IMG/VR virus record: IMGVR_UViG_2695420600_000001
Strand: one strand, 5' to 3'
DNA from: a virus
Taxonomy: Duplodnaviria; Heunggongvirae; Uroviricota; Caudoviricetes
DNA: 9,127 nucleotides
Within the stretch, counting starts at the first letter, position 1; every line of letters begins with the position of its first letter. A program made the position numbers and the translations under genes. The notes under the pieces are model-generated. The model had not been told where the DNA came from. It did not search any database and saw nothing but the letters and a program-made list of their open reading frames with translations. Below are positions 2,918-7,330 of the stretch, piece after piece.

Positions 2918-3000
2918 TGTCTTTCCTTCTGTGAATTTTTCTTTGCTATTTAACCGTGATACGACTTAATTTAGGCTTAAACACCTTACATTTACAAGGT

Positions 3001-3039
3001 ACTCCTGTGGGGGGCCCTGCCACGGAGCGTCGCAGGAGT
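3001..3039. other. Inverted repeat (ACTCCTG ... CAGGAGT) flanking a GC-rich 25-bp spacer, 70 bp upstream of terS
   Basis: 7-bp perfect arms at 3001-3007 and 3033-3039; spacer TGGGGGGCCCTGCCACGGAGCGTCG is locally GC-rich in an otherwise AT-rich intergenic region. Function unknown. Confidence 0.3.
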
Positions 3040-3111
3040 GAGTGATGAGGAAGAATTAAAGCAACCTATTGTGACAGGCAGCGATAACAGTAAATCACAG
3101 GAAGCATAATC

Positions 3112-3876
3112 ATGGCAAAACCGGACTGGGAGGCCATCGAATCGGCATACCGGGCCGGAGTCCTTAGCCTCCGTGATATAGGCGAGAAATACGGCGTTAC
3201 AGAAGGGGCTATCAGGAAGAGGGCCAAAAAGCTTGGTTGGGCACGCAGTGGCGGTACGCAGGTTTGCAAAAATGGTACGCAAAAAAGGAAAGTGCGTACC
3301 AGCAGAAAGCCTGCCATTACTGGCCTTACACAAAAAAGTACGCAACTAAAAACAGAATCTACACCGGATACGAAACCGATACGCGGAATGCGTACCGATC
3401 CCCCGACTAACCCATTCCAACCCGGTAACCAGCAGGCATTAAAACACGGTGGTTATGCCCGTCGCCTTCTGCTCAAAGATGAGGTGATAGAGGACGCTAA
3501 AGCGTTGACGCTCGAGGACGAATTATTTCGCCTTCGTGCTAACAACCTTGTCGCTGCAGAGAATATTGGTCGGTGGTTGGTGTCGCTGGAAGATGCTAAT
3601 GGGGACCAGGAAAGGAAGATGCTGATTGAAAATATCAGCGCCGCCGAGAAAGCAATGATGCGCAATACAGTTCGTATTGAGTCCATCGTTGGCACGCTTG
3701 CGACGGTAGGAAAAATATTTGCTGATACAGCCTACCGCAAGGCCGCCACTGATAAGGTGTCTCTGGAGGCTGATCGTCTTCGCCGTGATGCAGGTATTGA
3801 TGATGGCAATGGAGAGCGTGACCTCAATGACTTCTACTCTGACATCCAAACCGACGCTGAATCCGGCTTTACGTAG
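3112..3876 (+). CDS. Terminase small subunit (TerS) with an N-terminal helix-turn-helix
   Basis: 254 aa. The N-terminus (LSLRDIGEKYGVTEGAIRKRAKKLGW) looks like a helix-turn-helix DNA-binding motif, followed by a basic linker; it sits immediately upstream of terL. ATG at 3112 is preceded by AGGAAG. Confidence 0.7.
   Translation: MAKPDWEAIESAYRAGVLSLRDIGEKYGVTEGAIRKRAKKLGWARSGGTQVCKNGTQKRKVRTSRKPAITGLTQKSTQLKTESTPDTKPIRGMRTDPPTNPFQPGNQQALKHGGYARRLLLKDEVIEDAKALTLEDELFRLRANNLVAAENIGRWLVSLEDANGDQERKMLIENISAAEKAMMRNTVRIESIVGTLATVGKIFADTAYRKAATDKVSLEADRLRRDAGIDDGNGERDLNDFYSDIQTDAESGFT
3253..3396. repeat. Cluster of GGTACGCA octamers in both orientations inside terS; candidate pac site
   Basis: Perfect GGTACGCA at 3253-3260 (+) and 3274-3281 (+); reverse complement TGCGTACC at 3293-3300 and 3389-3396; 7/8 match AGTACGCA at 3337-3344. 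A-tracts flank several copies. Confidence 0.45.
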
Positions 3877-5230
3877 TTTCTGGACTATGCGGGCACGTAA
3901 CAAAGTGCTTTATGGTGGTCGGTCATCGTCAAAATCATGGGATGCCGCTGGCATTGCCATATTTCTGTCGAATAAATACACCCTGCGTTTTTGTTGTGCC
4001 CGTCAGATCCAGAATAAAATCGAAGAGTCGGTGTATACCCTGCTCAAAATTCAGATAGACAGGTTTGGTCTGCGGCACCGTTTCCGTATTCTGAACAACA
4101 AAATCATTAACCGGGTTACTGGCTCGGAATTTGTTTTTTATGGATTATGGCGCAACATCGAAGAAATTAAGTCACTGGAGGGGATCGATGTGTTGTGGCT
4201 GGAAGAAGCCCACGCACTGACGGAATACCAGTGGAAAATTCTGGAGCCAACGATCCGTAAAGAGGGTTCGGAATGCTGGTTCATATTCAACCCCGGACTT
4301 GTTACTGATTTCGTCTGGCGCAACTTCGTTGTTGATCCGCCCGAAGGCACTCTCATCCGCAAAATTAACTATGACGAAAATCCGTTTCTGTCTGACACCA
4401 TGCTTAAGGTTATCGACGCGGCGCGACGCCGTGATCCGGATGGTTTTAAACATGTGTATGAGGGCGTTCCGGAGTCTGATGATGATGCGGCAATCATCAA
4501 ACTGTCTTGGATAGAAGCCGCAGTGGATGCGCACAAAACGTTAAATTTCGAACCCAGTGGAAGAAAGCGTATTGGCTTTGACGTGGCTGACAGTGGTACA
4601 GATAAGTGCGCTAACGTTTACCGTCACGGATCCGTTGTTTTCTGGGCCGACGAATGGAAGGCCAAAGAAGATGAATTACTGAAGAGCTGCCAGCGTACTT
4701 ATCAGGCGGCGCTGGAGCGTGAAGCAGATATTGTTTACGACTCTATCGGTGTTGGTGCGTCTGCCGGTGCTAAATTCTCTGAAATTAACGCTGACCGGAA
4801 GAGCGAGAACGCATACGCGCGACGTGTGAATTACCAGAGGTTTAACGCCGGTGCTGGTGTGCATGAGCCAGATGACGAGTACAACGGCATCCCCAACAAA
4901 GACTTTTTCGCAAATCTTAAGGCTCAGGCATGGTGGCTGGTGGCTGACCGTTTCAGAAATACGTTTAACGCCATTAACAACGGAGAACAGTATCCTGTGG
5001 ATGAGCTGATCAGCATAGATTCTCGTTGTCCGTTGCTTGAAAAGCTGAAACTGGAACTGACAACACCTCATCGTGATTTCGACCGTAACGGACGTGTGAT
5101 GGTCGAAAGTAAAAAAGACCTCGCAAAACGCGAGATACCGTCACCAAACGTTGCTGATGCATTCATTATGGCCTTCGCGCCAATCGATACATCGCTGGAT
5201 ATCTGGGAACAGCTGGGGAGACAGGCCTGA
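3827..5230 (+). CDS. Terminase large subunit (TerL), PBSX-type
   Basis: Walker A motif VLYGGRSSSKS near the N-terminus, then a continuous 1.4-kb ORF with ATPase and nuclease-like regions. Start is uncertain: ATG 3827 (overlaps terS by 50 nt) or ATG 3887; the ORF-track start at 3719 is a TTG. Stop overlaps the portal ATG (ATGA at 5228-5232). Confidence 0.85.
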   Translation: MTSTLTSKPTLNPALRSFWTMRARNKVLYGGRSSSKSWDAAGIAIFLSNKYTLRFCCARQIQNKIEESVYTLLKIQIDRFGLRHRFRILNNKIINRVTGSEFVFYGLWRNIEEIKSLEGIDVLWLEEAHALTEYQWKILEPTIRKEGSECWFIFNPGLVTDFVWRNFVVDPPEGTLIRKINYDENPFLSDTMLKVIDAARRRDPDGFKHVYEGVPESDDDAAIIKLSWIEAAVDAHKTLNFEPSGRKRIGFDVADSGTDKCANVYRHGSVVFWADEWKAKEDELLKSCQRTYQAALEREADIVYDSIGVGASAGAKFSEINADRKSENAYARRVNYQRFNAGAGVHEPDDEYNGIPNKDFFANLKAQAWWLVADRFRNTFNAINNGEQYPVDELISIDSRCPLLEKLKLELTTPHRDFDRNGRVMVESKKDLAKREIPSPNVADAFIMAFAPIDTSLDIWEQLGRQA

Positions 5231-6696
5231 TGGCACGAAACAAACAAGCCCTGCGGCGAACTGTGCAGGCCACAGCTGATGGTTATGAGAATTTTATTGC
5301 CCGCGTAGGGATGCAGACACCTAACCAGCACTCAGCATCCACCTACCGGGCTAATTTCACCAGTCGTAACCGCATGCTGGTGGAATGGTCCTATCGTTCA
5401 TCCTAGATCATCGGCGAAGCAGTCGATGCTATCCCGGATGATATGACCCGCAAAGGCATTCGCATCACTTCGGAAATTGATGCAAAAGATCGTGGCATTC
5501 TCGAATCACAACTGGATGAGTTGCAAATCTGGGATGCGCTGAATGACGTGCTGAAATGGTCGCGCCTCTACGGCGGCGCGGTGGGTTTCATCATGATTGA
5601 GGGGTAGGCACCAATGACCCCGCTGCGACCCGAAACCATCGGTAAGGGCAAGTTTAAGGGGATTCTCCCGCTCGACCGCTGGATGGTCGACCCGGCACTG
5701 ACCCGCCGCATTAAAGATATGGGGCCGGACCTGGGTAAACCTGAGTTTTACGATGTGGTGACCACAGCAACGGGAATTCCTGCCTGGCGCATTCATCACA
5801 GTCGCCTGATTCGCTTTGATGGCGTCACGTTGCCATTTCAGCAGAAGATGACCGAGAACGAATGGGGAATGTCGGTTGTAGAGCGTATCTGGGATCGTCT
5901 TACCGCGTTCGACAGCGCTACTGTCGGCGCGGCGCAGCTGGTCTACAAGGCGCATTTGCGTACCTACAGCGTGGAGAAGCTACGCGAGCTTATCGCACTT
6001 GGTGGTCCTGCGTATGAAGCGTTGCTGAAGAATATCGACCTGATTCGACAGTTCCAGAGTAATGAAGGCATGACGCTCATGGACTCGCGGGATAAGTTTG
6101 AAACCCATCAGTACAGCTTCAGTGGTCTGGATGACATCCTTTCGCAGTTTGTAGAACAGATTAGTGGCGCTGTTGGTATCCCACTGGTGCGGTTGTTCGG
6201 ACAGTCCCCGAAAGGATTTTCTACCGGTGATGCAGACCTTGCCAACTATTACGATCGCATCAGTTCGTTGCAGGAGAGGCGTTTACGTCTTCCGGTGCGG
6301 CGGATACTGGACATCATGCATCGTTCGGAACTTGGCAAGCCGCTGCCGGACGATTTCACGTTTGAGTTTAACCCGCTCTGGCAAATGTCTGATGTCGATC
6401 GCTCAACGGTGGCGTTAAACACCACCAACGCAATCAGTACGGCGCTGGGTGATGGTCTGATGACACTGAAAGCCGCTATGACTGATTTGCGAGAAAATTC
6501 TGACGTAACCGGCATCGGGGCATCCATTACCGACGAGGACATCGAGAATGCCGAAGATGAAGCGCCGCCCGGCATCGGCGAACCTGATGACGAACCGCAG
6601 GAGCCGTCAGGCGGAAATCCGGTATCGAACCAGCCTACGCAGGATAGCGAGGGCGGTCGGAGACATCGTAAATGGTCGCTACGATGGTTCAAATGA
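5230..6696 (+). pseudogene. Portal protein gene interrupted by two in-frame TAG (amber) codons
   Basis: A single reading frame from ATG 5230 to TGA 6694-6696 translates as MARNKQALRR...VEWSYRSS*IIGEAVDAIPDD...FIMIEG*APMTPLRPETIGKGK..., coding-like throughout. The only interruptions are TAG at 5404-5406 and TAG at 5605-5607, with no frameshift. Position after terL, the size (about 488 codons) and an acidic C-terminus fit a portal. Confidence 0.7.
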
Positions 6697-7330
6697 CAGT
6701 ATCACGGAAATTATTGCGGCGCTGGAGCGTTACAGTGAAATCATCACCCCCTGGGCGACAAAGGTCGCGGAAAACTTTACTGCGGACCTAACCCGGCAGA
6801 ACGAGAAAGTTTGGCGGCAACACAGCAAGAACATCAGTCGCGAGCTCCGCAATCTTGTGGAAAGCGCTCCTGTGGGCCAGGTGATGCAATCCATCATCGC
6901 CGAACAGGTCAAGTACATCAAATCTCTGCCTCTCGAGGCCGCAGACAGGGTGTACGACATCCAGAACAAAGCGATAGAGGCTGTTGTCACCGGTGGTCGG
7001 GCGGAGCAGTTTGCTAAAGAGATTGCATCTACCGGCGATGTTGCTAAGTCTAGGGCCGATCTGATTGCCCGAACGGAACTGGGAAGAGCAACGGGCGCGC
7101 TGGATATGGCCCGAGCGATAGCTATTGGCTCGGATGGTTATATTTGGCGTACAGCCGATGATGGCGATGTCCGAGATTCCCACGATCACATGAAAGGTAA
7201 ATTCGTCCGCTGGGATTCACCTCCAACTTTGGACGGCATGACCGGCCACGCGGGCGAGCTGCCAAACTGCCGCTGCTATAAAGAGATCGTGTTTGTTCGC
7301 GTTCCATTCGCAATGAAAAGGGCAGCATAA
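6548..7330 (+). CDS. Head morphogenesis protein (phage Mu F-like / SPP1 gp7-like minor head protein)
   Basis: 260-aa ORF directly after the portal; the segment ADLIARTELGRATGALDMARAIAIG...RDSHDHMKGKFVRWD resembles the Mu F-like domain. Start is uncertain (ATG 6548 with GAGGA upstream, or 6557/6587); any of these overlaps the portal 3' end by more than 100 nt. Confidence 0.7.
   Translation: MPKMKRRPASANLMTNRRSRQAEIRYRTSLRRIARAVGDIVNGRYDGSNDSITEIIAALERYSEIITPWATKVAENFTADLTRQNEKVWRQHSKNISRELRNLVESAPVGQVMQSIIAEQVKYIKSLPLEAADRVYDIQNKAIEAVVTGGRAEQFAKEIASTGDVAKSRADLIARTELGRATGALDMARAIAIGSDGYIWRTADDGDVRDSHDHMKGKFVRWDSPPTLDGMTGHAGELPNCRCYKEIVFVRVPFAMKRAA

Follow-up and report, generated by a model that had tools for sequence, protein, structure and literature searches.

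Of the described systems for selecting viral DNA, cosB of the lambda-like phages is, by analogy, the nearest precedent for the element reported here, an array of a short DNA word lying within the small terminase gene (terS) of an Escherichia coli prophage (IMG/VR record IMGVR_UViG_2695420600_000001; the whole 9,127-bp stretch analysed is referred to as the window). We consider it probable that this array serves as the recognition portion of the pac site of this phage, bound by a ring of helix-turn-helix (HTH) domains of the TerS protein that the same gene encodes, because in relatives the word changes together with the recognition helix of TerS. In cosB, the winged HTH at the N terminus of the TerS protein gpNu1 recognizes several short repeats (R3, R2 and R1), which occur in both orientations (PMC4669245). 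The recognition-helix residues and the R sites of lambda, 21 and N15 differ together and set packaging specificity, and one N15 site, rR2, is located inside the terS gene (PMC4669245). Lambda, however, is a cos-type phage with a precise nick at cosN, an IHF site, a lambda-type large terminase (TerL) and sites that are mostly upstream of terS, whereas the array accompanies an Sf6-like headful TerL, consists of at most nine shorter sites (7–8 bp) that are all within the coding region, and belongs to a TerS in which no similarity to gpNu1 was detected. With a TerL of the Sf6/PBSX type and sites internal to terS, the array would be cosB-like in its working without being a member of that class.

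A second comparison is with the pac regions of SPP1 and SF6 (pacL with boxA, pacC with boxB, and pacR with boxC), which likewise belong to headful phages and in which direct repeats, grouped in sets, occupy the beginning of the terS region. The TerS proteins of these phages form a ring of HTH domains that is thought to wrap bent DNA (PMC4737164, PMC9611059), although the isolated domain shows no preference for the repeats (PMC4737164). The SPP1 repeats span promoters as well as the gene start, and their conservation between SPP1 and SF6 is poor. The word in the array, by contrast, is invariant, is present in many copies within the gene, and changes in step with the recognition helix. The array begins 128 nt inside terS and its TerS has no match to G1P, and we do not place it with this type.

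The array resembles the pac sites of P22 and Sf6 in being embedded in the terS gene of an enterobacterial headful phage, and the TerL encoded in the window is closest to Sf6 gp2. Leavitt et al. 2013 are said to have found that P22-like phages exchange the DNA-recognition part of TerS jointly with the pac site, and reportedly located the Sf6 pac in Sf6 terS. In P22, pac consists of one asymmetric sequence of 22 bp inside terS (PMC9611059, PMC8022706). The array differs in offering many copies of one short 8-bp word in place of a single site, and the TerS proteins are unrelated in sequence, the window TerS having no similarity to any solved TerS chain. Many copies of a short word are also a feature of P1 pac, where TGATCA/G hexamers lie in two clusters that depend on Dam and IHF and are served by PacA and PacB under control of GATC methylation; the word in the window, in contrast, lacks GATC. 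The iterons of the lambda origin offer a parallel of another kind, since they lie inside gene O and provide sites for the protein's N-terminal domain in the linker-coding part of its own gene, so that the specificity of the reader and its sites travel together; they serve replication initiation, however, and the protein is unrelated.

What the window locus has in common with pac sites is a headful-type TerL, a motif concentrated at one locus, and a specificity matched to the DNA-binding domain of TerS. We found no paper linking GTACGCA, the core of the word, to terminase or to pac, and none describing the array or its variants, in a literature search from which most subscription papers were out of reach, such that an earlier description is possible.

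The repeat array in the linker-coding part of terS

The terS gene (3112..3876, + strand) encodes a small terminase subunit of 254 amino acids that matches the PHROG family phrog_370, 'terminase small subunit', over residues 1–252 (E=7.5e-95). Its first 42 codons (3112..3237, + strand) encode an N-terminal three-helix HTH, with the recognition helix EGAIRKRAKKL at residues 31–41 (nt 3202–3234, + strand). In the AlphaFold model, residues 1–41 form this three-helix HTH with pLDDT values of 81–92 (helices at 6–15, 20–27 and 31–41), followed by a linker that is predicted to be disordered (residues 48–98, pLDDT ~30) and then by long C-terminal helices. The array spans codons 43 to 96, between the HTH and the C-terminal part, where the earlier note had placed it. 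The linker peptide is rich in Lys, Thr and Gln, and its predicted disorder suggests that sites encoded here cost the protein little.

An exact search for the octamer GGTACGCA returned the four perfect copies that had been noticed before, two direct (3253–3260 and 3274–3281, + strand) and two inverted (3293–3300 and 3389–3396, − strand), together with one further copy outside the cluster at 5957–5964 (− strand). Five copies in 9,127 bp compare with 0.14 expected, and none of 200 shuffled sequences reached five, in agreement with the view that this recurrence is very unlikely to be due to chance. The earlier note had also listed a single copy matching at seven of eight positions; such a copy exists, but a one-mismatch search finds two inside the cluster (GGCACGCA at 3240 and AGTACGCA at 3337), and alignment of relatives reveals two more, decayed copies (GGTTTGCA at 3261 and CTTACACA at 3324), most relatives having GTACGCA at both positions. 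In total the window terS contains approximately eight copies of (G)GTACGCA(A), with the 7-nt core intact in five and decayed in three.

The first five sites follow one another closely. Site 1 (3240..3247, + strand; GGCACGCA, seven of eight matching) is in the frame G-GCA-CGC-A and is read W-A-R-S, and close relatives have GGTACGCA here. Site 2 (3253..3260, + strand) is a perfect GGTACGCA read as GGT-ACG-CAG (G-T-Q), and site 3 (3261..3268, + strand; GGTTTGCA) is a decayed copy with six of eight matches that encodes V-C, where Klebsiella relatives have GGTACGCA and V-R. Site 4 (3274..3281, + strand) is again a perfect GGTACGCA read G-T-Q, with an A6 tract next to it, and converges with site 5 (3293..3300, − strand), a perfect inverted copy that appears as TGCGTACC on the + strand and is read V-R-T; the start-to-start spacing of these two, 18 bp, is kept in relatives. 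Site 6 (3324..3331, + strand; CTTACACA) is decayed to five of eight matches, with CGTACGCA or CGCACGCA in relatives, and site 7 (3337..3344, + strand; AGTACGCA) retains a perfect GTACGCA core read as AGT-ACG-CAA (S-T-Q). Site 8 (3389..3396, − strand) is a perfect inverted copy (TGCGTACC, read M-R-T) lying 51 bp past site 7, as it does in most relatives. The unit spacing is 13, 8, 13 and 12 bp, the convergent unit follows 18 bp on, and a second sub-cluster is found ~45–50 bp away. The A-tracts noted beside several copies are a general feature, with positions +8 to +11 past the core being 50–78% A across relatives, although this A-richness is due in part to Lys codons.

Sites 4 and 5 lie in the arms (TGGTACGCA and TGCGTACCA) of a perfect 9-nt inverted repeat (3273–3301), with 11 nt between the arms. 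The earlier note had taken this pair, with its 11-nt gap (3274–3300), as suited to a dimeric binding protein; the arrangement is as it described and a dimer is one option, but the majority of copies are direct repeats spaced by 8–13 bp, which fit a ring of HTH domains better. The same pair raises the alternative of an element that works at the RNA level, in which a hairpin of the terS transcript (3273–3301, with a 9-bp stem) would control translation, stability or terS/terL coupling. The hairpin is present in the minimum-free-energy fold (z=−2.15 against shuffled sequences), and the convergent pair and its spacing are conserved. Most copies, however, are direct repeats with no pairing partner, the inverted copy in HK639-type genes is ~28 nt off and imperfect, and an RNA structure gives no account of a word that tracks the HTH recognition helix. 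Both arms of the stem consist of the invariant motif, which leaves no compensatory changes that could support pairing, and with no covariation possible and a modest z-score we rejected RNA structure as the main explanation and regard it as very improbable.

Two near-matches between sites 7 and 8, GATACGAA and GATACGCG (3367–3385), were considered as further sites and set aside as probably not sites, as this stretch encodes a conserved TKPIRG motif. The corresponding GATACGAAACCGATACGCGG stretch (3367–3386, holding the two near-copies) is also conserved in the TerS of RothC and in Stx-type TerS, which use other repeats, and is kept in these because it codes for TKPIRG.

Between the two sub-clusters, at the position of window nt 3311–3322, Klebsiella relatives have a perfect 12-bp palindrome, GCCAGCGCTGGC (~1717–1728 in locus L001), of which the window retains only the outer arms (GCCATTACTGGC); any function in cleavage or as the site of a second factor is pure speculation. 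A scan for promoters and terminators around the array gave nothing above chance.

Conservation of the DNA word among relatives

To compare the array across relatives we used 72 non-identical terS loci from IMG/VR and phage records. The core GTACGCA occurs 464 times in nt 100–330 of terS in these loci (27.9 per kb), compared with 71 occurrences in the surrounding 1.11 Mb of phage sequence (0.064 per kb), making this part of terS ~440-fold denser in the word; within flanks of up to 20 kb we saw no second enriched motif able to serve as pac. Copy number varies from three to nine, and gains and losses are of whole 12-bp units. Klebsiella phages with ~88% DNA identity (GZ7, Mulock, Chronis, a Wanchaivirus and others) have more copies than the window, with GTACGCA present as many as seven times in direct and twice in inverted orientation.

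The word is translated in three different ways. It is read as xGT-ACG-CAx to give [GSR]TQ (254 copies), as GTA-CGC-Axx to give VR[KNS] (147 copies), and in inverted orientation as xTG-CGT-ACx to give [VM]RT (74 copies). Codon choice is correspondingly restricted: all 164 Gly-Thr pairs in the linker are encoded by GGTACG, compared with none of 66 elsewhere in terS, Thr-Gln is encoded by ACGCAR in 262 of 274 cases, and a Ser preceding Thr-Gln uses AGT, which keeps GTACG intact. The entropy at third codon positions is 0.23 in the sites, 0.77 in the linker outside the sites and 0.96 in the C-terminal domain. Since one word is maintained in three coding contexts with synonymous codons fixed, these comparisons indicate that the constraint acts on the DNA and not on the peptide.

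These observations bear directly on the possibility that the repeats are a by-product, in which a low-complexity basic linker (GTQ/VRK) was expanded by replication slippage and the copies are recent duplicates. The gain and loss of 12-bp units between relatives fits such a process, as do the Lys/Thr/Gln-rich linker with its predicted disorder and the GTACGCA runs in unrelated collagen-like GTQ repeats. An in-frame process, however, cannot place one word in two frames and on the opposite strand, and the synonymous positions are fixed in relatives from E. coli to Aeromonas. Slippage is also at odds with the retention of the word in unrelated protein contexts that have only the HTH in common, and with the change of all copies in concert with the recognition helix. 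The evidence from frame, orientation and codons led us to reject a peptide-repeat or slippage origin, which we hold to be highly improbable.

The earlier note had proposed a candidate pac site here, to be doubted if the octamer were as frequent elsewhere or if the repeats followed from a peptide motif conserved with different DNA. Both points have now been checked and both are favourable to a putative pac function: the word is enriched locally, and it occurs in three frames or orientations with fixed synonymous positions and shifts along with the HTH.

The repeat word and the TerS recognition helix

The association between word and HTH extends to TerS proteins that are otherwise different from that of the window. 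Those of HK639, SEN34, GF-2 and ST11-VIM1phi8.1 (phrog_1206) have only residues 1–45 in common with the window TerS, and right behind the HTH-coding segment their genes have three to four copies of GTACGCA and an inverted GCGTAC. In Aeromonas phage pAEv1818, whose HTH region shows 60% identity, the word is present five times in direct and once in inverted orientation. A third TerS architecture, on a metagenomic contig (locus L172) where the gene lies upstream of terL and the portal gene, keeps the helix SEGAIRKR and has three copies of GTACGCA.

Conversely, we scanned for viral loci with three closely spaced copies of GTACGCA. Of 80 such loci, 59 are in the context of a terS with this HTH. An HTH match lies 0–120 nt upstream in 55 of these, and the four without it comprise two terS open reading frames that are truncated (L117 and L127), one interrupted by the end of its contig (L171), and the architecture of L172. 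The remainder of the 80 are mostly collagen-like or simple tandem repeats.

Three loci lack this context. In two high-GC viral contigs (L104, ~6793–6840, and L142, ~3521–3560) GTACGCAGCCG is repeated three to four times with an 11-bp period just upstream of a helicase-like open reading frame, followed by an inverted TGCGTACC in L104 and by only a partial GCGTACC in L142; no HTH of the EGAIRKR type was found in either locus. Locus L136 has three copies of GTACGCA at 11–12-bp spacing (5264–5293) within an open reading frame of 282 amino acids that belongs to a replication module and is not a terminase gene, and this array could have arisen by chance or be an unrelated iteron-like array.

The co-variation of helix and word was counted on the scaffold of HK639 and Shamal, where the three repeats are at a fixed 15/12-bp spacing, by setting copies in the 206 nt that follow the HTH against those in the remainder of each locus. 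With the helices EGAIRKR, DGAIRKR and EGAVRKR the word is GTACGCA, found 48 times after the HTH and 5 times in the rest of the loci, and with DTAIRK[KR] it is GTTCGCA (170 and 13, respectively). Genes with the helix HGAINKR have GTATCCA (12 and 0), those with HTAIQKR or HQAISKR have GTTGCCA (12 and 1), and those with HNTILKR have GTGACCA (4 and 0). The matrix of helices and words is block-diagonal, and the general unit is GGT-NNN-CA. The encoded dipeptide shifts along with the DNA word, through VR, VS, VA and VT; because it changes with the word, the peptide follows the DNA and not the reverse. The joint change of all copies with the helix looks like co-evolution of a DNA-binding domain and its sites.

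The C-terminal scaffold of the window TerS is itself found with other N-terminal domains and other words. With a RothC-type N-terminal domain (...SAKRYIK) the word is TGCGAAT(TCGCA), often as the palindrome TGCGAATTCGCA, and with a further N-terminal variant it is TGCGCAA. The terS genes of Chronis (L004, 1508–2248) and RothC (L093, 455–1195) encode C-terminal domains that are 99% identical but have different N-terminal cassettes, an EGAIRKR HTH with a GTACGCA array in Chronis and another domain with TGCGAAT (TGCGAATTCGCA) in RothC. The recombination junction is the conserved TKPIRG-coding GATACGAAACCGATACGCGG stretch just past the array, and by its sequence the pair is a natural swap of a cassette made up of HTH and sites.

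A further set of repeats is seen at the same linker position in the Stx2a phage Stx2_KIH15-140 (L094, ~nt 735–830), whose TerS is related to the C-terminal domain of the window protein. It has three GATC-containing units (ATCGATCAT, ATTGATCAT and ACCGATCAT) at 12-bp spacing, plus two copies of TGCGCAAA. These units recall the Dam-controlled hexamers of P1 pac.

A reader other than TerS, such as a nucleoid protein of the host, a different phage regulator or a satellite element, seems quite improbable from these data. In favour of such a reader, the A-rich spacers could suit a bending protein, and the word also forms arrays at a few places outside terS (L104, L142 and L136). The word is, however, tied to the adjacent HTH across three TerS architectures, and it switches with the helix on otherwise conserved scaffolds in hosts from Escherichia to Pseudomonas, a pattern not predicted by a host factor.

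If the array is a pac recognition site, TerS would assemble as a ring with its HTH domains facing outward, and each HTH would read one repeat through the recognition helix EGAIRKRAK. Individually weak contacts, spaced by 8–13 bp on A-rich and bendable DNA, would sum to a specific wrapped complex, and this complex would recruit the Sf6-type TerL and position it to make the initial cut in a series of headful packaging events. The HTH segment and its sites would recombine as one specificity cassette between TerS bodies, and joint inheritance or recombination of the two is expected because both are within ~290 bp. Binding by TerS, the wrapping geometry and use as a packaging start are thus predictions from sequence.

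The co-variation indicates that the HTH protein reads the repeat but not for what purpose, and TerS might instead occupy its own coding DNA, or its mRNA, and so dampen the expression of terS and terL at the level of transcription or translation, with packaging starting elsewhere. A roadblock could act at the sites, as they lie within the gene and ahead of terL. What TerS is established to do on DNA is nevertheless to recognize the packaging site (PMC9611059, PMC4669245), pac lies inside terS in P22-like phages (PMC8022706), and up to 20 kb of flanks showed no other enriched motif that might act as pac. We therefore think autoregulation unlikely as the explanation, although it could coexist with a packaging role.

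Several points weigh against assigning the array to pac. The co-variation rests on approximately six pairs of helix and word, which are partly correlated with clade. The literature provided no virion ends, TerS footprint or transduction data for any family member, and the ends of the relatives' records are uninformative on pac, all deposited records having been opened at terS or terL by convention. A Foldseek search with the full-length TerS model gave only coiled-coil noise and no significant TerS match. Repeats of SPP1 and SF6 that were once assumed to be TerS sites barely affected binding by the isolated DNA-binding domain (PMC4737164), showing that repeats near terS are not automatically recognition sites. 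Finally, several copies of the array in the window are decayed, and the portal gene (5230–6696, + strand) has in-frame TAG codons at 5404–5406 and 5605–5607, where an E. coli FDAARGOS_944 prophage with 8 differences in 6,471 nt has TGG and CAG. With two amber codons in its portal gene the window prophage is probably defective, and its array may be a relic that is no longer used.

A more specific proposal is that this TerS family has a readable recognition code, in which one HTH reads one 8-bp GGT-NNN-CA unit, two to three helix residues set the central triplet, and the cassette of HTH and array is a mobile module swapped by phages. The code would assign ACG to E-G..R, TCG to D-T..R, ATC to H-G..N, TGC to both H-T..Q and H-Q..S, and GAC to H-N-T..L. 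We put this forward tentatively, code and triplet assignments together, as somewhat less than an even prospect.

Genomic setting and packaging specificity

The terS region of this E. coli prophage is present in 209 of 5,426 complete genomes, and the RefSeq coding sequence of FDAARGOS_944 has the same terS coordinates. The gene lies directly upstream of terL and overlaps it. The large terminase gene (3827..5230, + strand) belongs to an open reading frame that is open from 3719, the RefSeq start being 3827, and encodes a protein of the PBSX/Terminase_3 type with profile matches to PF04466 (E=4.5e-38) and TIGR01547 (PBSX family). Its best solved relative is Sf6 gp2 (PDB 4idh, E=8e-79 over residues 23–462), which identifies it by homology as an Sf6-like terminase of the headful-packaging type, as the earlier note had supposed. 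The gene order is terS, terL, portal and a Mu-F-like protein, followed by head proteins. Searches with the TerS sequence against PDB gave no relevant match, and a profile search with the HTH returned only sub-threshold matches to Lrp and TetR HTH domains.

Similarity to most other E. coli prophages and to Klebsiella phages starts within ~7 bases upstream of the terS ATG (~3105–3110). A 190-bp spacer (2918–3111) and a divergent DedA-family gene (2405–2917, − strand) are common to only three genomes, and among the relatives there is no conservation in the region upstream of terS. By these alignments the start of the packaging module is a mosaic junction.

To our knowledge few pac sites are known. 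The selection of viral DNA by small terminases is still called unclear and controversial (PMC9611059), and in vitro TerS binding is weak and mostly non-specific, with the candidate repeats of SPP1 and SF6 having little effect (PMC4737164). The array described here is an unusually legible case. An invariant word of 7–8 bp is present in three to nine copies, the architecture is fixed, a single scaffold comes in no fewer than five natural variants of specificity, and cassettes have been swapped in nature. Changes in the number, spacing or orientation of the copies and exchanges of the helix would put the wrapped-ring model to a direct test. The array would let pac sites and packaging specificity be predicted from sequence for hundreds of prophages of E. 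coli, Klebsiella, Salmonella, Aeromonas and Pseudomonas, which is relevant to the spread of resistance and virulence genes by generalized and lateral transduction. If the proposed recognition code is true, this would be the first pac system in which the register of ring to repeat is directly testable, and packaging specificity, and hence the DNA that is transduced, would be both predictable from sequence and reprogrammable.

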